Below are positions 1-13,293 of a stretch of DNA of 13,293 bases, in pieces. The stretch's first letter is position 1; the number at the start of each line of letters is the position of its first letter. Where the stretch lies: the IMG/VR virus record IMGVR_UViG_2563366821_000011. The stretch is one strand, 5' to 3'. The DNA comes from a virus (Duplodnaviria; Heunggongvirae; Uroviricota; Caudoviricetes). The notes beneath the pieces were generated by a model that was not told the DNA's origin, did no database searches, and worked only from the letters and a program-made list of their open reading frames with translations. The position numbers and the translations under genes were made by a program.

Positions 1-669
1 ATGTGTGGACGCTTTGCCCAATCCCAAACGCGTGAAGATTACCTCGCGTTTCTCGCGGAAGATATTGAACGCGATATTCCCTACGATCCCGAACCTATTG
101 GCAGATACAACGTCGCGCCGGGAACCAAAGTCCTTCTGCTCAGTGAACGTGATGAACACCTTCATCTGGATCCGGTTTTCTGGGGATATGCTCCCGGATG
201 GTGGGATAAACCGCCGCTGATTAACGCCCGCGTAGAAACTGCCGCAACCAGTCGCATGTTTAAACCGCTCTGGCAACATGGTCGGGTAATATGCTTTGCC
301 GATGGCTGGTTTGAGTGGAAAAAAGAAGGCGACAAAAAACAGCCTTATTTTATCTATCGCGCTGATGGACAACCTGTTTTTATAGCCGCGATAGGTAGCA
401 CACCGTTTGAGCGCGGTGACGAAGCCGAAGGAGTTTTAATTGTCACTGCAGCAGCAGACCAGGGCCTGGTAGATATTCATGACCGCCGCCCGCTGGTACT
501 GTCGCCAGAAACTGCGCGGGAATGGATGCGGCAAGACATTGGTGGTAAAGAAGCCTCAGAAATCGCTACCAGAAGCTGTGTGCCAGCAAACCAGTTCATC
601 TGGCACCCTGTGTCGCGCGCGGTGGGTAATGTTAAAAACCAGGGCGCGGAGTTAATTCAACCTGTTTGA
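1..669 (+). CDS. yedK: SOS-response-associated peptidase (SRAP) / abasic-site processing protein YedK, 222 aa
   Basis: ORF opens with MCGRF (the N-terminal Cys2 nucleophile typical of SRAP proteins) and matches YedK of E. coli as I recall it. ATG at 1, TGA at 667-669. Confidence 0.9.
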   Translation: MCGRFAQSQTREDYLAFLAEDIERDIPYDPEPIGRYNVAPGTKVLLLSERDEHLHLDPVFWGYAPGWWDKPPLINARVETAATSRMFKPLWQHGRVICFADGWFEWKKEGDKKQPYFIYRADGQPVFIAAIGSTPFERGDEAEGVLIVTAAADQGLVDIHDRRPLVLSPETAREWMRQDIGGKEASEIATRSCVPANQFIWHPVSRAVGNVKNQGAELIQPV

Positions 670-864: not shown

Positions 865-887
865 GGTGATGCTGCCAACTTACTGAT
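865..887. repeat. IS1 left terminal inverted repeat (about 23 bp)
   Basis: GGTGATGCTGCCAACTTACTGAT, imperfectly complementary to 1610-1632. Confidence 0.85.
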
Positions 888-919
888 TTAGTGTATGATG
901 GTGTTTTTGAGGTGCTCCA

Positions 920-1195
920 GTGGCTTCTGTTTCTATCAGCTGTCCCTCCTGTTCAGCTACTGACGGGGTGGTGCGTAACGGCAAAAGCACCGCCGGACAT
1001 CAGCGCTATCTCTGCTCTCACTGCCGTAAAACATGGCAACTGCAGTTCACTTACACCGCTTCTCAACCCGGTACGCACCAGAAAATCATTGATATGGCCA
1101 TGAATGGCGTTGGATGCCGGGCAACAGCCCGCATTATGGGCGTTGGCCTCAACACGATTTTACGTCACTTAAAAAACTCAGGCCGCAGTCGGTAA
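920..1195 (+). CDS. insA: IS1 InsA (transposition repressor / N-terminal part of the InsAB transposase), 91 aa, GTG start
   Basis: Translation [22 protein letters not shown]... with a CxxC...CxxC zinc finger and an HTH. Stop TAA at 1193-1195. Confidence 0.9.
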
Positions 1196-1617
1196 CCTCG
1201 CGCATACAGCCGGGCAGTGACGTCATCGTCTGCGCGGAAATGGACGAACAGTGGGGCTATGTCGGGGCTAAATCGCGCCAGCGCTGGCTGTTTTACGCGT
1301 ATGACAGGCTCCGGAAGACGGTTGTTGCGCACGTATTCGGTGAACGCACTATGGCGACGCTGGGGCGTCTTATGAGCCTGCTGTCACCCTTTGACGTGGT
1401 GATATGGATGACGGATGGCTGGCCGCTGTATGAATCCCGCCTGAAGGGAAAGCTGCACGTAATCAGCAAGCGATATACGCAGCGAATTGAGCGGCATAAC
1501 CTGAATCTGAGGCAGCACCTGGCACGGCTGGGACGGAAGTCGCTGTCGTTCTCAAAATCGGTGGAGCTGCATGACAAAGTCATCGGGCATTATCTGAACA
1601 TAAAACACTATCAATAA
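1114..1617 (+). CDS. insB: IS1 InsB reading frame (catalytic part of the InsAB transposase, made by -1 frameshift at AAAAAAC 1171-1177)
   Basis: 167-aa ORF in the -1 frame relative to insA that overlaps the insA 3-prime end. The A6C slippery motif sits at 1171-1177. Confidence 0.85.
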
Positions 1618-1632
1618 GTTGGAGTCATTACC
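1610..1632. repeat. IS1 right terminal inverted repeat (about 23 bp)
   Basis: Reverse complement GGTAATGACTCCAACTTATTGAT matches the left IR at most positions. Confidence 0.85.
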
Positions 1633-1663
1633 TCTGATCCCATGGTAATTCAGCTGTTATTTT

Positions 1664-2650
1664 CTATTTAAGAATAAAACGGTATTTACTGTCAGGAGTG
1701 CTTTGCTGATCAAGTAGCAGTGAACGACATGGAGCAGTCAAAACCCGAGCATAACTACCATCAGGGCTTATGTTAATGTAACAAACCTTGCCCTTAACAC
1801 TATAATTTTCGGGGACGGATGCCTTTGCTGATACAGTAAATTTAAGGGTATGCCAGCCCGTTTTTTGCTTGTAGCTTGAAACCGAATGGAAATCATCTGA
1901 GTACTTATTTAACCCTGGAAACATGCTGCGCAGTGCGGGGATGGAATCTTCTATTATTTTATCGTTGGTTTTAATGTTAAAAACGCTGGTTTCAGTAGAA
2001 GCTACTGCTTTGGCATTTCCCCATTTACCAGCGAACACAATCATTCCCACGAAAAATATTGCTACAAGAACTAACACTCCCCCCAACACTACTACATGAG
2101 GCTTCCGGCTTCTGGTTGGTACAGTTGCGACTGATTTTGCACCGCTTTCCGATGGAGGTGATAGAGTTTTACTCTCATCACGAATATTCAGCAGATCATC
2201 AAAATAACCAAACACAGCCTGCAACTGCTCTTTGTCTAGGCCTTTAAGATGGGTTGTACCGAAATGCTTCAGACAGTATCTGTCACGGTCAAGACGATAC
2301 CCAGGGTCAGTAAGCGCCATTATTTTGCTGACCAGAAGATTACAGTCCTTCATATTCTGGATCTGTTGTGCATATCTCTGAAGGATCTCAACCGCACCAT
2401 GATAATCAGCCGCAGTCATTTCATTAACTGTTTTGGTATTAAGTTTCGTGTGGATCGTCATCCATAGCTCGCGCTTACTTTCCCCCAGATCAACCAATTC
2501 ATCCATCAATCTGTGTAAATCGCGTTTTTGCAGCAACGAAATTGGTTGCTGGGCCGAAGGAAGTATGTCAGCAGAATAGTTATGAATGGTAACATCACCG
2601 CTGACAACGTTACCCACATCCCCGTTAACTGTTTGCTTCTCTTTACTCAT
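1664..2650 (-). CDS. Hypothetical single-pass membrane protein, 328 aa, translationally coupled to the prophage repressor
   Basis: 987-bp ORF in an AT-rich region (about 37-40 percent GC by hand count). Its ATG overlaps the repressor stop in an ATGA. One strongly hydrophobic segment (VVVLGGVLVLVAIFFVGMIVFAG, about aa 185-207) is flanked by basic residues. The N-terminal motif GDVGNVVSGDVTI resembles the repressor C-terminal tail. I recognise no known family. Confidence 0.7.
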   Translation of the reverse strand: MSKEKQTVNGDVGNVVSGDVTIHNYSADILPSAQQPISLLQKRDLHRLMDELVDLGESKRELWMTIHTKLNTKTVNEMTAADYHGAVEILQRYAQQIQNMKDCNLLVSKIMALTDPGYRLDRDRYCLKHFGTTHLKGLDKEQLQAVFGYFDDLLNIRDESKTLSPPSESGAKSVATVPTRSRKPHVVVLGGVLVLVAIFFVGMIVFAGKWGNAKAVASTETSVFNIKTNDKIIEDSIPALRSMFPGLNKYSDDFHSVSSYKQKTGWHTLKFTVSAKASVPENYSVKGKVCYINISPDGSYARVLTAPCRSLLLDQQSTPDSKYRFILK

Positions 2651-3108
2651 CTTCTCTTGGTATTTTTGTTCATTATTCCACCTGTTCCTATGGTTACGTT
2701 ACCTTTGATAACATTCCCCAGAACATCTCCATGAATAACCTGTTCCGCCCGTTCTCTGGAGGAGCCAGTAGTCAAGGCCGACAAAACTGAACCTTTGACC
2801 TGTAATGGTGCCTGCCGGTAGTGCTGCAGTAACTCCATTTCATCACGTGATAAAGTTATACCTGATGACTCCCCGGTAAGAATGAACTGTACATTGGCCC
2901 CAATTCTTGCAAAGGCTGCAAGTAACTCACCTCCGGGAACAGCAACCCCTCGTTCATATTTCCCCCACATTTCTCTTGAAACGCCACAAAGGGCTGCTAC
3001 TTCAGCCTGCTTGAGTGATAACCGCGAACGCTCAGCTTTGAACCGCGACGCGCAAAGAGAATCAAAATTCACACAAACCTCATTGACAATGAGAACAATA
3101 GTTCTCAT
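2647..3108 (-). CDS. XRE/Cro-C1-type HTH transcriptional repressor (prophage c-repressor analogue), up to 153 aa
   Basis: HTH motif LSLKQAEVAALCGVSREMWGKYERG. Transcribed divergently from the early operon, as for Mu c. The start is uncertain: ATG at 3108 lies inside the operator palindrome and has no SD (possibly leaderless), while an in-frame GTG at codon 13 is preceded by GAGG. Confidence 0.75.
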   Translation of the reverse strand: MRTIVLIVNEVCVNFDSLCASRFKAERSRLSLKQAEVAALCGVSREMWGKYERGVAVPGGELLAAFARIGANVQFILTGESSGITLSRDEMELLQHYRQAPLQVKGSVLSALTTGSSRERAEQVIHGDVLGNVIKGNVTIGTGGIMNKNTKRR

Positions 3109-3111
3109 AAT
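3083..3111 (+). promoter_or_regulatory. Putative sigma70 early promoter (Pe-like): -35 TTGACA (3083-3088), 17-bp spacer, -10 CATAAT (3106-3111)
   Basis: Consensus -35, ideal 17-bp spacing and a 5/6 -10, lying 48 bp upstream of the ner-position gene whose SD is AAGGAG and ATG is at 3159. Confidence 0.5.
3089..3108. promoter_or_regulatory. Putative operator: perfect palindrome ATGAGAAC-N4-GTTCTCAT within the early promoter spacer
   Basis: 8-bp perfect inverted repeat arms with a 4-bp spacer between the -35 and -10 of the rightward promoter. It overlaps the first codons of the repressor ORF. Confidence 0.5.
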
Positions 3112-3158
3112 CTATCACATATAAAACAAACATCATTGCATCAACAAAGGAGACAACA

Positions 3159-3347
3159 ATGACTTCCGAACAAGTTAAAAATCTCTTCCGTCAGCGTGGT
3201 ATCACGTTTACCCGCTGGGCCGAAGAACACGGCTACAGCCGCAATGAGGTCTATCGTGTTCTCAATGGACAGACCAAAGCTCGTTACGGCAAAGCCCATG
3301 AAATTGCCGTAAAACTGGGATTAAAACCCACGTCAAATGCGGCATAA
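3159..3347 (+). CDS. Small HTH DNA-binding protein in the ner position (Ner/Cro-like early regulator), 62 aa
   Basis: Strong SD AAGGAG 7 nt upstream. HTH-like segment TRWAEEHGYSRNEVYRVLNGQ. First gene of the rightward operon, opposite the repressor. Not obviously similar in sequence to Mu Ner. Confidence 0.65.
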   Translation: MTSEQVKNLFRQRGITFTRWAEEHGYSRNEVYRVLNGQTKARYGKAHEIAVKLGLKPTSNAA

Positions 3348-3399
3348 ATTTTCCACATATGCAACAGGTTATCACATATTGCAAAAATGGAAATGTGAC

Positions 3400-3708
3400 A
3401 TGAGTAAAGTAAATATTTCCAGTTCTGGGACCCGCATCCTACGTGTACTCAAAGCTCTACGCGGTCATGCTCTGAACGGTGTTTCTAACGGTGAACTGGC
3501 ATCAGCCCTGGGGGAGTCCCCGGCGAATATCAATCGAGCACTTAATACCCTTATTGAAGAGGGACTGGCCATGAAATTAGAGAACGGACGTTTCGCACCG
3601 GGAATCCAGTTACTACAGATCGCCATGGCTCACAGTCACGAGATGGCGCGTGCACAGGATCGTATTAACGAAATCAACCAACGAGTTATTTCAGGTAGTC
3701 GTTTGTAA
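3400..3708 (+). CDS. Winged-HTH DNA-binding protein (IclR/MarR-like N-terminal domain only), about 103 aa
   Basis: Motif ILRVLKALRGHALNGVSNGELASALGESPANINRALNTLIEEGLAMK resembles an IclR-type wHTH. Start chosen at ATG 3400 (weak SD); an alternative in-frame ATG at 3337 overlaps the upstream gene. Confidence 0.55.
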   Translation: MSKVNISSSGTRILRVLKALRGHALNGVSNGELASALGESPANINRALNTLIEEGLAMKLENGRFAPGIQLLQIAMAHSHEMARAQDRINEINQRVISGSRL

Positions 3709-3718
3709 GGAGTAATCA

Positions 3719-4633
3719 ATGGGACGCACCAAATCACCCGTTAACACTGAACTGAATGTTGAGGTTCCGCTGTCAGATAACATCAATGTCAATTTGAACG
3801 CTATGACACAGCATCGCATGGAAATTATGCAGCAGTTTGGTGATGGACTGCCTTATGAACGTGATCGCATTGTTCACGAAGCACGTTTTTATATGGCGCA
3901 GAGTGCTGAATCTATGCTGGAAGCGGGTAAGCGGCTGATCATCTTAAAAGAAAATGAGCCACACGGTGATTTTACAAACATTTTAGAAAATGAACTCGGA
4001 CTTGCACCACAAGTTGCTCGCCGCATGATGCAAGCCAGTATGAAGTTTTTGGGAGAAGGTGATGAGCCAACAAAACGCTCAACGTTGAGCGTTTTGGGGA
4101 AAGCCAAACTGTACGACCTGATGGTTCTGGATAATGAAGAACTTGATGAATTGGCCGACGGCGGCACAGTTGCCGGCCTGACGCTTGACGACGTTGATCG
4201 CATGTCAGTACGTGAATTGCGTCAGGCCCTGCGCGAAGCGCGCGAAACCAACGCAGCACAACAGCGCGTACTCGCCGACAAAAATGAAAAAATAGATTCA
4301 CTCTCCACCAGACTGGAGAAGAAATCCCGTATTCAGCCGCCTGAGCCTGATGAGGAGGTTAAGAAGCTGCGGGCGGAAGTAACAGCATTAGCGGTTGAGG
4401 CGGAATCTGCTATCGCCGTCCGACTGTCCAGCGCTTTTGAGACGCTGTGCGCATATTGTGCTGAAAACATGATTGATACCCCCAGAGACTTCATGGCAGG
4501 CCTGGTCTGTCAACTGGAAAGCACAGCGCGTAGCCTGCGCTCCACATTTGACCTGCCGGACGAGCCAACAGGCAATGCAGCGCCTTCATGGCTGACTGAG
4601 CCGACGCCACAGATTAACGGGCTGGAGGCATAA
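3719..4633 (+). CDS. Hypothetical early protein, DUF3102-like N-terminal region plus coiled-coil and acidic C-terminus, 304 aa
   Basis: SD TAAGGAG 6 nt upstream of ATG. Motif HGDFTNILENELGLAPQVARRMMQASMKF resembles what I recall of DUF3102. Stop is 3 nt before the transposase ATG. Confidence 0.6.
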   Translation: MGRTKSPVNTELNVEVPLSDNINVNLNAMTQHRMEIMQQFGDGLPYERDRIVHEARFYMAQSAESMLEAGKRLIILKENEPHGDFTNILENELGLAPQVARRMMQASMKFLGEGDEPTKRSTLSVLGKAKLYDLMVLDNEELDELADGGTVAGLTLDDVDRMSVRELRQALREARETNAAQQRVLADKNEKIDSLSTRLEKKSRIQPPEPDEEVKKLRAEVTALAVEAESAIAVRLSSAFETLCAYCAENMIDTPRDFMAGLVCQLESTARSLRSTFDLPDEPTGNAAPSWLTEPTPQINGLEA

Positions 4634-4636
4634 CCA

Positions 4637-6406
4637 ATGAATGCTGCCCTGACTGAACGACTGGTTTATGTCGCCCGCGCGGCACGTGACGCGGGGCATG
4701 GTAAACGCGGTGCAATATACGACGCTGCCTGTGCTGAACTTGGCATGTCCCGCGCCACTCTGCTGCGCAGGCTGAAGGAGGTCTCTGTGACTGATAAACG
4801 CAAAAAACGCGCCGATGCCGGGCGCAGCGCCCTGACCCGCGACGAAGCCGCGCTGATATCTGCCACACTGCGTGAGGCCACCCGCAAGAACGGTAAGCGT
4901 CTCTATTCCATCGCAGATGCAGTGGAAACCCTACGGGCTAACGGCTTTATCACCGCAGGCAGAACAGATGAAACCACCAGTGAGTTTTTCCCGTTGTCTG
5001 AAGATGCCATCAGCCGTGCTCTGCGTAACTATGGCCTGCACCCGGAACAACTGGATGCCCCTGCACCACATACCGAAGTGGCCAGTCTGCATCCCAATCA
5101 TGTCTGGCAGATTGACGCCTCACTCTGCACGCTTTACTACCTGAGCAATGGACATAAAGGGCTGCAGGTGATGGACAGCGCGAAGTTCTACAAGAACAAG
5201 CCCGCTAACCTTGCCCGTATCGCCAGTGACCGCGTGTGGAGTTACGAGATTACCGACCATGCCAGCGGCTGGATTTACGTTGAGTATGTGACGGGCGCGG
5301 AATCAGGTGAGAACCTGTGTTCTGTGCTTATCAACGCCATGCAGGAGCGTGGCGGCGCAGACGTGCTGCACGGCGTGCCGAAAATACTCTATCTCGACCC
5401 CGGCTCGGCAAACACCGCGGGTATGACGAAAAACATGTGCCGCTCACTGGGCATCGACCTGATAGCGCACAAGCCGCATAACGCCCGCGCCACCGGACAG
5501 GTGGAAAAGGCGCGTGACATTATCGAACGCAAGCTGGAGCCGGGGCTGAAGTTCCGGCCGGTTCACAGTCTGGAAGAACTCAACGCGCTGGCCGCGAAAT
5601 GGCGCAGCCACTTTAACGCCACGGCTGTTCACAGCCGCCACGGTAAAACCCGCACGGATATCTGGCTGAAGATTACTGCTGAGCAGCTGAAAAAAGCGCC
5701 TTCCGTTGAGGTATGTCGTGAACTGGCTGTGGCGGCACCAGAACTCCGCAAAGTCACGCCAAAACTTCGTGTCTCGTTCCGGGGCACTGAATTTGACGTA
5801 TCAACGGTACCGGGCGTACTGGTTGGTGAAAAACTGATGATTACCCGTAACCCATGGCGCAGCGATGTGGCACAGGTGGTTCTGACCGGTGAGGACGGCC
5901 ACGAGACGTTCTTCCTGGTCGAAGAGGTCAGAAAGAACGAGTTTGGCTTTGCTGAAGGCGCGGCGGTATTTGGCGAAAGTTACAAAGCCCTGCCGGAAAC
6001 CTCGGCACAGATGGCGGCAAAAGAAACTGAAGCGCTGGTTACCGGTACAGACAACGCTGCAGATGCAGCCGCCGCACGCAAGGCGAAGGCGCTGCCGTTC
6101 GGCGGGCGGCTTGACCCGTATAAACATATCGACGACACCACACTTCCGGCCTATATGCCGAAGCGTGGTCAGGCCTCTGACGTACGCGGGCCGCGCACTG
6201 AACAACGTCCCATGACTCATGTGGAGGCCGCGAAAGCCCTGCGCGATAAGTTCAGCGCCGACGGCCTTACCTGGACGCCGGAACATTACCGCCAGTTAAC
6301 GGCACAGTACCCGGACGGCGTACCGGAAGCTGCACTGGATGAAGTCATGGCCACGCTGACCACGCCGGCACGCAGCAGTGTTATCAGCATTGTTAACGGC
6401 AACTGA
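4637..6406 (+). CDS. Mu-like DDE transposase (A protein), 589 aa
   Basis: N-terminal HTH, then an rve-type catalytic core with D160 (HVWQIDAS), D254 (LYLDPGS) and E290 (ATGQVEKA; D-35-E spacing). Located immediately upstream of the AAA+ B gene. Confidence 0.9.
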   Translation: MNAALTERLVYVARAARDAGHGKRGAIYDAACAELGMSRATLLRRLKEVSVTDKRKKRADAGRSALTRDEAALISATLREATRKNGKRLYSIADAVETLRANGFITAGRTDETTSEFFPLSEDAISRALRNYGLHPEQLDAPAPHTEVASLHPNHVWQIDASLCTLYYLSNGHKGLQVMDSAKFYKNKPANLARIASDRVWSYEITDHASGWIYVEYVTGAESGENLCSVLINAMQERGGADVLHGVPKILYLDPGSANTAGMTKNMCRSLGIDLIAHKPHNARATGQVEKARDIIERKLEPGLKFRPVHSLEELNALAAKWRSHFNATAVHSRHGKTRTDIWLKITAEQLKKAPSVEVCRELAVAAPELRKVTPKLRVSFRGTEFDVSTVPGVLVGEKLMITRNPWRSDVAQVVLTGEDGHETFFLVEEVRKNEFGFAEGAAVFGESYKALPETSAQMAAKETEALVTGTDNAADAAAARKAKALPFGGRLDPYKHIDDTTLPAYMPKRGQASDVRGPRTEQRPMTHVEAAKALRDKFSADGLTWTPEHYRQLTAQYPDGVPEAALDEVMATLTTPARSSVISIVNGN

Positions 6407-6416
6407 GGAGGAAAAC

Positions 6417-7583
6417 ATGCTGGTACTGAAGCAGCAACTGAAAGAGGCCCGTATCCCACAGGCGGTGGTGGCGAGAGCTGTCGATGTTTCTGAGGCCACG
6501 CTGGCCCAGATTGTGAATCATAACGCGTGGCCCCGCACCAGCCCCGGAGAAGTGCGCCGGCGTCTTGCGTCCTGGCTGGAAAGTCAGGGGATTGATACAA
6601 CGAAGAGTTTTGATGCTGTACAGGGCGCAGCCACGCCCCGTACAGCGGGTACCACAGATAAAACGAGCCTCAGTGAGGAAGAGAATATGTTACTCAAAAA
6701 ACAGGTGTTATTTCCAGCAACCAAAAAAGCGTTTGGTCTTTTCCGTGACCCGTTCGCCGATGAAGCCATGCAGGGTTCTGATGATGTGTTCACCACCCCG
6801 GACATTCGCTACGTGCGTGAGGCGTTGTACCAGACAGCCCGTCATGGTGGGTTTATGGCCGTCATCGGTGAGTCCGGTGCGGGTAAATCCACGCTGCGCC
6901 GCGACCTGACTGAACGTATCAACCGCGAGAATGCGCCGGTAATTGTTATCGAGCCATACATCATCGCTATGGAAGACAACGATGTGAAAGGGAAAACCCT
7001 GAAGGCAGCAGCGATTGCCGAAGCCATTATCAGTACCATCGCACCACTGGAAAGCATCAGACGCAGTCAGGACGCCCGCTTTCGCCAGTTGCATCGCGTC
7101 CTGAAAGACAGCAGCCAGGCGGGGTTCAGCCACGTTTTGGTGATTGAGGAGGCCCACAGTCTGCCCATTCCGACACTGAAACACCTCAAACGCTTTTTTG
7201 AGCTGGAGTCCGGTTTCAAAAAACTGCTGTCCATCGTGCTGATTGGCCAGCCGGAACTGGCGACAAAACTGTCTGAACGCAATATGGAAGTCCGTGAAGT
7301 CGTTCAGCGTTGTGAGGTGGTCGAACTTCTGCCTCTGGACAATAACCTTGAAGAATTTCTGACGTTCAAACTGCAACGGGCCGGTAAACAACTGACGGAC
7401 ATTATGGACGCCAGCGCAGTGGATGCCATACGTGCCCGCCTGAGCAATCCGGGAAGTCATCGTAAAAATATGGTCAGCCTGCTGTATCCGCTGGCCGTCA
7501 GTAACCTGGTGATAGCCGCCATGAATCTGGCCGCTGAAATCGGGGTTCCACAGGTCAACGCTGACGTTGTCAAAGGGGTTTAA
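6417..7583 (+). CDS. Mu B-like AAA+ ATPase (transposition target DNA activator), 388 aa
   Basis: SD GAGGAGG directly upstream. N-terminal HTH (QAVVARAVDVSEATLAQIVN), Walker A GESGAGKST and Walker B VLVIEEAH. An in-frame internal ATG with its own SD lies at 6687. Confidence 0.85.
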   Translation: MLVLKQQLKEARIPQAVVARAVDVSEATLAQIVNHNAWPRTSPGEVRRRLASWLESQGIDTTKSFDAVQGAATPRTAGTTDKTSLSEEENMLLKKQVLFPATKKAFGLFRDPFADEAMQGSDDVFTTPDIRYVREALYQTARHGGFMAVIGESGAGKSTLRRDLTERINRENAPVIVIEPYIIAMEDNDVKGKTLKAAAIAEAIISTIAPLESIRRSQDARFRQLHRVLKDSSQAGFSHVLVIEEAHSLPIPTLKHLKRFFELESGFKKLLSIVLIGQPELATKLSERNMEVREVVQRCEVVELLPLDNNLEEFLTFKLQRAGKQLTDIMDASAVDAIRARLSNPGSHRKNMVSLLYPLAVSNLVIAAMNLAAEIGVPQVNADVVKGV

Positions 7584-10622: not shown

Positions 10623-11064
10623 ACAACGTCTTATCCAGCTCATTCATATTGCCCGTAATGAACTGGGTATGGATGAAGACACCTACCGCCAGATGTTACA
10701 GGGGCTGACCGGTAAAGCCTCAACCAAAGGAATGGATACCACACAACTAAACTGCGTGCTGGAATCCATGAAAAGGAAAGGCTTTCGCGTTAAGCCTGCC
10801 AGAAAAGCCAGCTCCGGTTTACCGCTGGATAACCATCCGCAGTCCAGGAAAATCCGTGCGCTATGGCTTGAAATGGCTGCTGCCGGCATTGTTCGTGACC
10901 GTTCAGAAAATGCATTAGCGCGGTGGATCAAGCGGGAAACGGGCATCAGCGCCCTGCGCTGGCTCAATACTGAACAGGCAAGCAGTGTTATTGAGAAACT
11001 GAAGAAGTGGCAGCGCAGAGCTGCGGGAGTAAAACATGAGCGACCTGAATCAGTTTCGAAGTAA
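10612..11064 (+). CDS. gemA: GemA-like protein (Mu gp16 family, DUF1018), 150 aa
   Basis: SD AAGGAG 5 nt upstream. N-terminal motif KQRLIQLIHIARNELGMDEDTYRQMLQGLTGKAS is typical of Mu gp16/GemA-like proteins. Lies immediately upstream of mor, as in Mu. Confidence 0.7.
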   Translation: MMTKQRLIQLIHIARNELGMDEDTYRQMLQGLTGKASTKGMDTTQLNCVLESMKRKGFRVKPARKASSGLPLDNHPQSRKIRALWLEMAAAGIVRDRSENALARWIKRETGISALRWLNTEQASSVIEKLKKWQRRAAGVKHERPESVSK

Positions 11065-11434
11065 AGGGCCGGAACTCCTGGTGGAACTGGCACAGCATAC
11101 CTCTGAGACCGTTCGCGAGATTATTGATATTGAGCCCGCAATTGCCGACCAGATTGGTCAGGCCGTCGCGAACCGAATGATGCAGGTCTGGGGCGGGCAA
11201 AACGTTTATTTCCCGATGGGCATGGTATGGAAGGTCAGTCAGCGCGACCGGGAAATCTTCAGGGAGTTTAACGGACGCAACCACCACGAACTGGCCCGCA
11301 ATTTTGGTGTTTCGCTTCAGTGGGTCTACAGCGTGGTTAAGCGGGTCAGAAAAGAAGAACTGGATCGGATGCAGGGCAGGTTGTTTGATGAAGATCTGCC
11401 AGAGGAGACGAAAGACGTTAACAAATCCAGATAA
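11036..11434 (+). CDS. mor: Mor-family transcriptional activator (middle operon regulator), 132 aa
   Basis: Motifs GGQNVYFP and FNGRNHHELARNFGVSLQWVYSVVKRVRK match the Mor/C family HTH region. Last gene of the early operon. Confidence 0.85.
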   Translation: MSDLNQFRSKGPELLVELAQHTSETVREIIDIEPAIADQIGQAVANRMMQVWGGQNVYFPMGMVWKVSQRDREIFREFNGRNHHELARNFGVSLQWVYSVVKRVRKEELDRMQGRLFDEDLPEETKDVNKSR

Positions 11435-11479
11435 TTCCTGCTTGTTAAAGTCCTTTCAAAAATCTCCTTATTGTATAAG

Positions 11480-11511
11480 AGCACGGTAGACCCTTTACCG
11501 TGCTTTTTTTA
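11480..11511 (+). terminator. Rho-independent terminator-like hairpin (stem AGCACGGTA / TACCGTGCT, 7-nt loop, T-run)
   Basis: Perfect 9-bp inverted repeat immediately followed by 6-7 T, 46 bp after the mor stop. It could also serve as a dyad protein-binding site. Confidence 0.6.
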
Positions 11512-11548
11512 TGCTCTCTATGTAATATTCAGGATGCAGGGAGAAAAT

Positions 11549-12181
11549 ATGTTTGACGTTTCGTTATTAAATCTGCCATGGGCAACACTGGTGACCCTGA
11601 CCAGTGGCTATATTGGGTATTTTATTGCGAATGTGGGGCTGAAGGATCACCACAAACCCATTGAGGTGACTTTTTCTTCGCTGATTTTTGGCCTGACAGC
11701 AATGATGGCTTACCAGGCTGTTATGTGGGCAGGTCTGAATGCCTGGCTGGCAACCCCCCCAGCACTTCTGTGTGCCGTTACATGCGGTGCGTGGTGGCGC
11801 AGGTACGGTCGCAAATGGATGTACAGATTACTGTGGAATAATGATATTTCATGGTCTGACAATACCAGCTCAGCATGGCAGGCAATGTTTGATCAAACAG
11901 GCTTCAGCGTCACCGAGGTCAGAGTGATTCTTCGCGATGGTTCCGGTATGATGTCACGGCTGCCAGGGAACTTTGAAGAGTGGCCTAACGGTCCGTTTAC
12001 CCTGGGAAATAAAGGCGATATGGTTCTTTACGTCACGCACAGCAGCCCTTCAGGAAGTAACGAATGGGAAGAGTATAAAGGCGTGGTTGATAAGTACTGG
12101 GGAGCTCTGGCAACCTATATTCCAGCAGATCAGATTGCCAGAGTGGAGATCAGGCGCGTTCGTGCAACGAACGATGAATGA
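11549..12181 (+). CDS. Hypothetical membrane protein (three N-terminal TM helices plus a soluble C-terminal domain of about 120 aa), 210 aa
   Basis: SD GGGAGA 7 nt upstream of ATG. Three hydrophobic segments in the first 85 aa, followed by RRYGRK. Occupies the position where Mu carries C. No family recognised. Confidence 0.65.
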   Translation: MFDVSLLNLPWATLVTLTSGYIGYFIANVGLKDHHKPIEVTFSSLIFGLTAMMAYQAVMWAGLNAWLATPPALLCAVTCGAWWRRYGRKWMYRLLWNNDISWSDNTSSAWQAMFDQTGFSVTEVRVILRDGSGMMSRLPGNFEEWPNGPFTLGNKGDMVLYVTHSSPSGSNEWEEYKGVVDKYWGALATYIPADQIARVEIRRVRATNDE

Positions 12182-12499: not shown

Positions 12500-12532
12500 A
12501 TTTATCTCACGGATCCCCCTTCATTTATCTCA
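12500..12532. repeat. Direct repeat ATTTATCTCA x2 (12500-12509 and 12523-12532), 23-bp register, next to the dgcQ junction
   Basis: Exact 10-bp direct repeat, each followed by a GATC-containing segment, lying just inside the foreign DNA. Confidence 0.4.
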
Positions 12533-13293
12533 TGTCTGATCAACCAGTAGTTATTACTGTCTACCGGAACACTGACGGTAACCTGCGGTTCAGTATTGCT
12601 GGCGTGTTCCGGTTGCGAAGTGAACCAGCGTACCGCGCGGTGACGATTTTCTCGTTGTGAATGGCCGATAAACCAGGGTTGGGTGACATAGCCGTAATAA
12701 CGCGTTGGTACATTGCGCGTAAACAAGGTCGGCAGCGTCGAAACGTAAAATCCAGCACGCGAGACATACACCGCCTGTTCAACCATCGACGAGGAGTTGT
12801 GCGCCAGTCGCAGCAAGTAACCAACTTCCAGTGCAGCGGTAATTTCATTGTCGAGGCTTTCATTTTCGCGAGACAGGAGATTCCCCTCGCTGACTAATGC
12901 ATCCGATACGCCATTGACTGGCAGGGTGCGCCGTCGGTTGAGTTCGATTTGCCAGGTGTGCTCGTCGCGATGCTGTTCGAACTCGGTTACGGCATTACGC
13001 AGAGAGGTGAAATCCAGTGGCGCCACGAGAGCTTCGCGCATGCCATTACGCAAAAAGATCAGTTTGTCGACGTTATACTGCAAATGCTTATCGAGCGCGT
13101 TGGCTACGTTTTCCAGATGATTACGCTGGCTGGAGATATAGGCATCTTCCAGCACCACCACTTCACGCCAGGTGAGCAAGGTGGAAAAAAGCAATACCAC
13201 GATAAAGCAGAGATTAACGATATGACCAGGCCCCAGGCGGCGTGCGAGTTTTTTCAACCAGCTCTGGTTTTCCATTTTTGTCTCGTGCTGCAC
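12502..13293 (-). pseudogene. dgcQ: 5-prime fragment of a DgcQ/YedQ-like membrane-anchored diguanylate cyclase gene (N-terminal TM and periplasmic sensor domain only; GGDEF domain absent)
   Basis: The ORF starts at the window edge (GTG) and reads [15 protein letters not shown]..., with a signal-anchor TM ([18 protein letters not shown]) and a periplasmic-type domain. It ends after 263 aa with a short unrelated tail ([13 protein letters not shown]) and has no GGDEF motif. Identity is from memory of E. coli YedQ (about 564 aa). Confidence 0.55.

Follow-up and report, generated by a model that had tools for sequence, protein, structure and literature searches.

Matching terminal peptides on a prophage repressor and its membrane-protein neighbor point to a repressor–membrane link in BcepMu-like and P2-like prophages

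The IMG/VR viral record IMGVR_UViG_2563366821_000011 (here "the window", the whole stretch of 13,293 nucleotides that was analyzed) holds the remnant of a BcepMu-like transposable prophage, in which an XRE-type repressor gene is followed on the same strand by a gene for a 328-amino-acid (aa) membrane protein, referred to below as the partner. We found that the C-terminal tail of the repressor and the N-terminus of the partner carry the same peptide motif, and that tail and partner match each other, in many different versions, across many unrelated prophages. Matched terminal motifs on adjacent genes are here applied to a prophage repressor, and the sequence comparisons point to an undescribed link between repressor and membrane; the literature we searched contained no description of a repressor–partner motif pairing of this kind. 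With modest confidence, we favor the interpretation that the two genes form an immunity cassette in which repressor and membrane partner are directly paired by their terminal peptides, so that repressor activity would be coupled to the membrane.

In the window, both copies of the motif follow the pattern GDVxGNVxxGxVTI. The repressor copy, RAEQVIHGDVLGNVIKGNVTI, lies at 2689–2751 (minus strand) and is followed by a basic end, GTGGIMNKNTKRR, while the partner copy, KEKQTVNGDVGNVVSGDVTI (residues 3–22), lies at 2585–2644 (minus strand) and is predicted to be disordered. The motif is terminal on the partner but internal to the repressor tail, with 10–13 residues after it, and the two copies are about 60–110 bp apart. 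The best local alignment of the two whole proteins pairs RAEQVIHGDVLGNVIKGNVTI with partner residues 3–22 (KEKQTVNGDV-GNVVSGDVTI), and its score of 55 was reached in none of 20,000 composition-preserving shuffles (mean 18.9, maximum 45). The shared GDVxGNV motif, first noticed in an earlier note on this sequence, is therefore real; the similarity extends over ~20 aa, with a G/N/V core of 13–17 aa. Both copies were also conserved in homologues. Across 18 homologues of the partner (44%–82% identical, all from Enterobacterales), the N-terminal GDVGNVVSGDVTI was essentially invariant, including G10, G13–G18, V20, and I22, and the repressor motif was kept in close homologues, with other motif classes taking its place in distant ones.

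Matching between tails and partners was evident across the family. Loci were gathered from the repressor side (31 genomes and 80 IMG/VR contigs) and from the partner side (80 IMG/VR loci, collected with a narrower alignment of Flk_N, the cytoplasmic domain of the partner). Tails of repressor homologues fell into several types, including HGDVLGNVIKGNVTIG, VSGxGNRVAGRDYNE, (I/V)FHGxVGQ..., and others, almost all of them finishing in K/R, and the Flk_N relatives began with the same motif types. The tail and the downstream N-terminus were, respectively, GKGHRFALGDYHENK and GQEHRIALGDYYEH in locus L091, HIGKVGQIVQADNIETV and KIGKVGQLIQTENIGTI in L108, HGGQFSTGTINNYG and HGGQFGQVINNYY in L103, FNGNIDGQVSAENIYNI and FNHTVGQVAANNIYNI in L070, and GNRVAGRDFNENKK and QNRVAGRDFNENK in L006. 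Even idiosyncratic variants were matched within their locus (...HRFALGDYHE with ...HRIALGDYYE, and IGKVGQIVQADNI with IGKVGQLIQTENI), and HGGQF..INNY and FN..GQV.A.NIYNI were likewise present on both proteins. Altogether, there were at least eight motif variants, each matched inside its own locus. For 55 non-redundant pairs, the summed score of repressors with their own partners was 2071, compared with 1253 ± 70 when partners were permuted (z = 11.7, 0 of 10,000 permutations), and every rare motif class ranked its own partner first. From the partner side, a motif-tailed open reading frame (ORF) ended no more than 90 nt upstream in 79 of the 80 loci. All 41 loci with the class-b motif contained exactly two copies of it, and no third motif-bearing protein was found in these loci, nor in the window or the scanned part of an intact copy of the prophage (L001). 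In many class-b partners (for example, L071 3400–4026, P0239, and P0288), NR(V/I)AGRD(F/Y) is followed, before Flk_N, by a second element, ...(F/Y)DGRHT(I/V)NIAIP; by analogy, this could possibly be a tandem arrangement like that of two-repeat beta-solenoid motifs.

A likeness between neighboring genes could be functionless, having arisen by local duplication, as a leftover of gene conversion, or as a seam between modules, and been inherited with the cassette. The short distance between the two copies fits such an origin, as does the fact that cassettes pass on as units, with shared descent inflating the permutation statistic. However, among 279 identical residues in aligned motif pairs, the same codon was used at only 40%, where chance predicts 0.26–0.60 per residue, and in the window the same codon was used at 4 of 11 identical residues. 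Since codon identity equals the chance level, it is the protein sequence whose likeness is preserved, and a recent duplication or conversion of DNA is not indicated. The motif residues are, moreover, invariant in partner homologues that are otherwise just 44%–82% identical, and the match is kept across unrelated motif classes and unrelated partner architectures, as well as in nearly all loci of the partner-side test. We therefore consider a functionless likeness very improbable. The earlier note had offered two readings of the shared motif, a recombination seam and a shared interaction surface; the codon data do not bear out the first, and the co-variation of tail and partner strongly favors the second.

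The same motif class was joined to differing partners, namely tail-anchored Flk_N proteins, Zn-ribbon proteins with two transmembrane (TM) helices, small two-TM proteins, and proteins with Flk_N, a TM helix, and a periplasmic domain. Because identical classes sit on different membrane architectures, the motif is a portable module, and membrane anchoring is what all partner types have in common. Docking of both peptides into the Flk_N domain was considered and is disfavored, as partners that lack Flk_N carry these motif classes too.

Rather than binding each other, both peptides could be recognized by a common third factor, either a protease or adaptor or a phage antirepressor. Both motifs are in exposed, disordered termini, and the tails of the repressors have K/R-rich ends. 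The C-terminus of the Mu repressor controls its degradation by ClpXP, and we take the basic C-terminal end of the present repressor to resemble ClpX C-motif-2 signals such as that of MuA. A constant host factor would not, however, yield at least eight matched classes in the same host genera. Within 3–5 kb, we found no third copy of the motif and no obvious co-varying third gene, and the differing placement of the motif, N-terminal in the partner and followed by 10–13 residues in the repressor, also speaks against a common recognition signal. Together, the diverse matched classes in the same hosts and the codon data lead us to disfavor both the third factor, which we judge quite unlikely, and the functionless likeness.

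The simplest account is that the peptides bind each other, since they are matched, co-varying, portable, and disordered termini on two co-translated proteins. The repressor tail presents a ~20-residue, Gly/Asn/Val-rich, beta-prone motif plus a basic stretch, and the partner shows the same motif on what is predicted to be the cytoplasmic side. The two copies would then pair directly as a beta-strand zipper, possibly by amyloid-like templating, and the repressor would be retained at, or captured by, the membrane protein. In this way, the state of the membrane or periplasm could be linked to repressor activity, giving the lysogeny switch an SOS-independent input, and the periplasmic domain of the 328-aa protein may act as sensor or effector. 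We infer physical binding of repressor and partner from the sequences, as we do the direction of control (the partner may regulate the repressor, or the reverse), the signal, and the outcome. Candidate outcomes are an induction input, buffering of the repressor or deeper repression, and a repressor-gated membrane activity of the toxin–antitoxin (TA) or abortive-infection (Abi) kind.

The nearest functional precedent for such a cassette is lambda cI-rexA-rexB, in which accessory genes are downstream of the repressor gene on the lysogenic transcript and in which the switch is biased by contacts that CI makes with RexA and with RexB, a membrane protein. RexA binds CI, a two-hybrid assay showed interaction of RexB with CI, and RexB may keep CI at the membrane (10.1101/2021.04.19.439022). 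There is no sequence homology between the two systems (scans with PADLOC, Pfam, and NCBIfam gave no Rex match), and the lambda Rex proteins lack a shared terminal motif, whereas the window encodes a single bitopic protein with a matched peptide.

In its genetics, the window pair resembles amyloid signaling motif pairs (fungal HET-S/NWD2, bacterial BASS, and E. coli Bab/Agp BASS11). In such pairs, too, a short Gly/Asn-plus-hydrophobic motif of ~20 aa ends one protein and begins its neighbor, the motif classes diversify yet match within the locus, and one bearer is at the membrane. Their motifs are unstructured in the monomer, which for the window pair is a prediction. Bab/Agp, a prophage-borne Abi system of E. 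coli, has an amyloid motif common to one protein's C-terminus and the adjacent product's N-terminus in a prophage defense island (10.1101/2024.11.07.622273), and so shares with the present cassette a location in E. coli prophages. The protein with the C-terminal motif is here a DNA-binding repressor, not a pore-forming Bell, HeLo, or Bab domain. Amyloid signaling partners comprise a sensor and a membrane-targeting cell-death effector, and the pair found here consists of an HTH_31 (helix-turn-helix, HTH) repressor and a Flk_N membrane protein; the literature on amyloid signaling motifs that we searched mentioned no association with HTH proteins or repressors. The window pair thus has the genetic signature of amyloid signaling pairs, with amyloid itself being an analogy. 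A prion-like form of the pairing, in which a membrane- or periplasm-sensing protein nucleates assembly of the repressor tail and switches the repressor off, would take this analogy furthest, and we think it improbable, if worth keeping in view.

Several points weigh against direct pairing. An ancient gene conversion followed by synonymous drift may have produced the codon pattern. Compared with amyloid signaling pairs, the N-terminal motif belongs to a Flk_N protein anchored in the membrane and not to a sensor of the NLR/STAND or TPR kind, and the core of 14–17 residues is at the short end of the length range for such motifs. Motif-like tails were present on the repressors of L021/L022, L023/L104, L068, and L078, but the next downstream ORF was unmatched; the true partner may be elsewhere or lost in these loci. 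In L068, the downstream ORF encodes a second HTH repressor. Conversely, some Lonsdalea and Pseudomonas relatives (loci of the type found in L007–L011, L016–L020, L079, L081, L089, L095, and L097) have a motif-like membrane partner and a repressor without a tail, which may represent a different coupling mode. Repressors of this type end in another C-terminal domain, which is helical (...VLKLV(I/V)N(H/R)), and their downstream membrane protein begins with a helix, with the motif-like segment following (ITISVGGDNPGSIHVGSVVNI or IKIKGDYGNINLGTQ). The loci are also phylogenetically related, and co-inheritance of tail and partner as a cassette supplies part of the permutation signal; because of this shared descent, our argument rests on the count of independent, internally matched motif classes. 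Finally, with equimolar co-expression, the repressor is unlikely to be sequestered constitutively, and the model has to postulate a conditional trigger.

The domain structure predicted for the partner is consistent with a cytoplasmic domain tethered at the inner membrane. The AlphaFold2 (AF2) model has a disordered segment at residues 1–30, with a predicted local distance difference test score (pLDDT) of about 40 in the motif region, followed by a confident helical domain (31–158), a low-confidence linker, a TM helix (188–207), and a confident alpha/beta domain (221–328). On the minus strand of the window, these correspond to the cytoplasmic Flk_N domain at 2177–2560 (residues ~31–158, pLDDT about 80–96), the TM helix at 2030–2095 (residues ~186–207, from hydropathy and the AF2 helix), and the periplasmic domain at 1667–1990 (residues ~221–328). 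The predicted topology is N-in/C-out and bitopic. The proposal that the protein spans the membrane once is supported by a single hydrophobic helix (186–207), a C-terminal domain with invariant cysteines, and homologues of that domain that are lipoproteins or secreted proteins. The two cysteines, C290 and C308, were invariant among the 18 homologues and could form a disulfide in the periplasm.

The earlier note had recognized no family for this protein, but it does contain a Flk_N domain (PF27202 in the precomputed annotation of homologues) and belongs to PHROG 10002. The domain matched NCBIfam Flk (NF007987) with E = 2.9e-12 over residues 19–147, with 46.6 bits against an equivalog cut-off of 353 bits, and a profile search from the 328-aa protein recovered Flk-like proteins at E of about 1e-4. 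Scans with Pfam, NCBIfam, PHROGs, and PADLOC gave Flk_N and PHROGs of unassigned function and nothing else, and a structure search with the 328-aa protein found no significant neighbor. Flk (Fluke/RflH), which regulates the switch in flagellar export, is a cytoplasmic protein with its anchor at the C-terminus (PMC13344023). The partner shares with this regulator of flagellar type III secretion specificity the helical Flk_N domain and an inner-membrane-anchored cytoplasmic domain. Flk, in contrast, is chromosomal, has its anchor at the very C-terminus, and lacks an N-terminal motif, whereas the 328-aa protein is prophage-encoded beside a repressor, has an internal TM helix (186–207) and a ~120-aa periplasmic domain, and is no full-length equivalog.

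An exhaustive profile search showed that the two halves of the partner also occur apart. Many proteins of ~180–270 aa consist of the N-terminal motif, Flk_N, and a C-terminal anchor, and many lipoproteins or secreted proteins of ~130–200 aa consist of the periplasmic domain alone. In KP12-like phages of the BcepMu type, a lipoprotein with this domain is encoded immediately downstream of the repressor, in the equivalent position, a sequence-based hint of an envelope-directed role. The full 328-aa protein was limited to about 24 clusters of sequences, and all of these came from Enterobacterales. Because of this narrow distribution, and because siblings with a 99%-identical transposase lack the gene, comparison of sequences supports its status as an accessory gene outside the Mu-like core, rather than an ordinary Mu-like component.

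The main rival to direct pairing with a regulatory role, and the one closest to the superinfection-exclusion or Abi module that the earlier note had proposed, is that the cassette is a TA-like or Abi module. The membrane protein would be a toxic or exclusion effector, latent at first and able to assemble with itself by way of the N-terminal motif, with the repressor tail capping it as an antitoxin, and loss or titration of the repressor upon induction, curing, or superinfection would free the membrane activity. The layout resembles that of type II TA systems with XRE antitoxins, with the HTH gene first, an ATGA overlap between the genes, and a disordered tail of the HTH protein as the likely contact. 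Expression from the lysogenic transcript, as with rexAB, would suit an exclusion function, several partner types are small two-TM proteins, and Bab/Agp offers the precedent of an Abi system. The lone periplasmic domain that KP12-like phages carry as a lipoprotein in the equivalent position adds to this, as Cor/Llp-type exclusion lipoproteins occupy a similar position. On the other side, most partners combine a tail anchor with a Flk_N domain that is large and soluble, which is atypical for pore formers. The locus was checked for defense systems, and no known family was matched: in a scan of PADLOC-DB v2, the 328-aa protein had no match at E < 0.01 (the best was PDC-M19B, E = 0.014, 12.9 bits) and the repressor had generic HTH matches only, and no toxin family of Pfam, NCBIfam, or PADLOC was matched by the 328-aa protein. 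In type II TA systems, the second protein belongs to a toxin family. Here, the HTH protein is encoded divergently from the early transposition operon, at a promoter-like site with a palindrome, and for this reason we regard it as the prophage repressor. Retention of the cassette together with the repressor in E. coli genomes fits either interpretation. Overall, we consider a TA-like or Abi module unlikely, though a serious contender.

The repressor matches HTH_31/HTH_3 (HTH_31 E = 4.7e-7), and its longest ORF, at 2647–3108 (minus strand), encodes 153 aa. The true start is probably a GTG at 3072 (2647–3072, minus strand, 141 aa), because a promoter-like site and a palindrome lie over the 5'-terminal 36 nt of this longest ORF and because homologues begin with MNFDSL or VNFSSL at the equivalent position. 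The rightward early promoter-like site, TTGACA-17-CATAAT (3083–3111, plus strand), matches 11 of 12 consensus positions and is identified by this match only; between its hexamers is a 20-bp perfect palindrome, ATGAGAACAATAGTTCTCAT (3089–3108), a candidate operator by pattern match only. A 25-nt direct repeat (3061–3085 and 3114–3138, 76% identical) flanks the palindrome. The 141-aa form is predicted to comprise an HTH domain (residues 1–65), two helices (75–101), and a disordered tail (104–140; pLDDT about 40 in the AF2 model). Some relatives of the HTH domain (P0090, P0091, and P0100) carry a Peptidase_S24 domain in place of the tail, and within the repressor family the tail thus appears to occupy the position of the S24 autocleavage domain of these relatives.

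The partner gene (1664–2650, minus strand) overlaps the repressor gene in an ATGA stop/start, agaagATGAgtaaag, at 2647–2650 (minus strand), and this –4 overlap was identical in every IMG/VR copy of the window's cassette. The overlap implies, from sequence, translational coupling of repressor and partner. The two ORFs, of 328 and 153 aa, and their arrangement as a single leftward unit on the repressor transcript are as the earlier note described them. A programmed frameshift joining both ORFs was considered and rejected as a general mechanism, as other loci have spacers of 2–35 nt and no ATGA overlap.

P2-like prophages of Klebsiella, E. coli, Enterobacter, Raoultella, and Serratia very commonly carry the class-b form of the cassette, and their operon consists of a ~130-aa repressor, a 209–215-aa Flk_N partner, a small gene, and the integrase. 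In the assembly collection, one Klebsiella partner sequence was indexed in 1,158 blocks and one from E. coli in 489, and the sources name these partners only as "hypothetical protein", "membrane protein", or by a Flk-based regulator name. A search of 50,697 GenBank phage records with the 328-aa protein and a 213-aa partner found the cassette in one, Escherichia phage 520873. This phage (L033, NC_049344.1) is P2-like and has an unannotated, apparently frameshifted Flk_N partner gene at 2453–3065 (minus strand), flanked by the genes for the repressor (gp04, with the tail GGNNRIAGRDYNETKGR) and for the integrase.

Close relatives of the window prophage differ in immunity. The window transposase shares 99% identity with its counterpart in Escherichia phage PhiKM (Bcepmuvirus) and 68%–69% with those of BcepMu and phiE255, and on these identities the element is classed as a BcepMu-like transposable prophage, distinct from canonical Mu. 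Canonical Mu, with no gene downstream of its repressor, had been used as the comparison for the module, but this comparison fails for an element with a BcepMu-like backbone, an XRE HTH_31 repressor, and an internal cassette with genes beyond it. BcepMu, KS10, and PhiKM (Bcepmuvirus) have the same backbone and an internal repressor, and KS10 has hypothetical genes downstream of the repressor. PhiKM and KP12, heteroimmune siblings of the window prophage, differ in having other immunity cassettes, with repressors that lack the motif tail and without a partner bearing an N-terminal motif. The KP12 record (L034, Klebsiella phage KP12 clone KP12_2, OM835952.1) is filed as Vequintavirinae and has a BcepMu-like segment inside, with a transposase, an IclR-like regulator, a repressor, and a lipoprotein; this segment is probably a co-assembled prophage or induced phage, not part of a Vequintavirinae genome.

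The rightward genes of the window begin across from the repressor with a Ner-like HTH gene (3159–3347), followed by other early genes of a transposable phage, including a winged-helix protein and then DUF3102, the rve transposase (4637–6406), an ExeA/B-like ATPase, and Gam, and by a Mor-like gene (11036–11434). As had been noticed before, the repressor module is more AT-rich than the transposition genes (GC content 0.42–0.46 over 1500–3500, compared with 0.54–0.60 over 4250–7250). GC content is lower just 3' of the Mor-like gene, where the last gene before the prophage end (11471–12181, plus strand) encodes a 236-aa multi-pass membrane protein of PHROG 12870, for which no Pfam or PADLOC match was found. 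This may be a second gene that is expressed in the lysogen, or one of the moron type.

Comparison with an intact copy indicates that the window prophage is a remnant. E. coli SCU-172 carries this prophage in intact form; there it measures ~37.4 kb, is inserted in dgcQ, and has the repressor cassette internally. To the left of the cassette are a 196-aa membrane protein, a terminator-like hairpin, and then lysis, head, and tail genes on the opposite strand. The 196-aa protein is encoded by a third operon gene in intact prophages (L001 5360–5950, minus strand), has a glycine-zipper-like segment and a C-terminal TM helix, and belongs to PHROG 12025; the sole terminator-like hairpin of the repressor operon comes after this gene in intact copies. 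In the window, yedK (1–669, plus strand) is followed by an IS1 copy (866–1632, plus strand), whose right end meets prophage DNA 31 bp past the stop of the 328-aa gene, and the match to the intact prophage begins at 1633. The other prophage end interrupts dgcQ, of which the 5' part lies at 12502–13293 (minus strand). Relative to SCU-172, an IS1-associated deletion took the third operon gene and all late genes, together with a chromosomal stretch holding the rest (3' part) of dgcQ, yedP, yodD, dsrB, rcsA, and a fliR fragment. SCU-172 has fliR'-IS1-yedK close to the prophage, and the lost stretch is that between the prophage and this IS1. The IS1 junction of the window was found in no complete E. 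coli genome of the collection. The cassette itself was present in 127 of 5,426 complete E. coli genomes, intact and with the repressor every time.

Many repressors of P2-like and Mu-like prophages lack a RecA-sensitive cleavage domain, and how these prophages sense when to exit is largely unexplained. A co-varying peptide link between repressor and membrane protein is a concrete candidate for such an input, or for a repressor-gated membrane effector, in a cassette that is common in clinically important Enterobacteriaceae. It gives a first context to phage-borne Flk_N domains and extends to gene regulation the logic of the same motif on adjacent genes, previously tied to NLR-like immunity. The motif classes could serve as specificity codes that insulate co-resident prophages from one another. 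If the prion-like form of the pairing were true, it would be the first amyloid signaling motif to control a transcription factor and a lysogeny decision, and would offer a general SOS-independent induction route for thousands of P2-like and BcepMu-like prophages in E. coli, Klebsiella, and their relatives.

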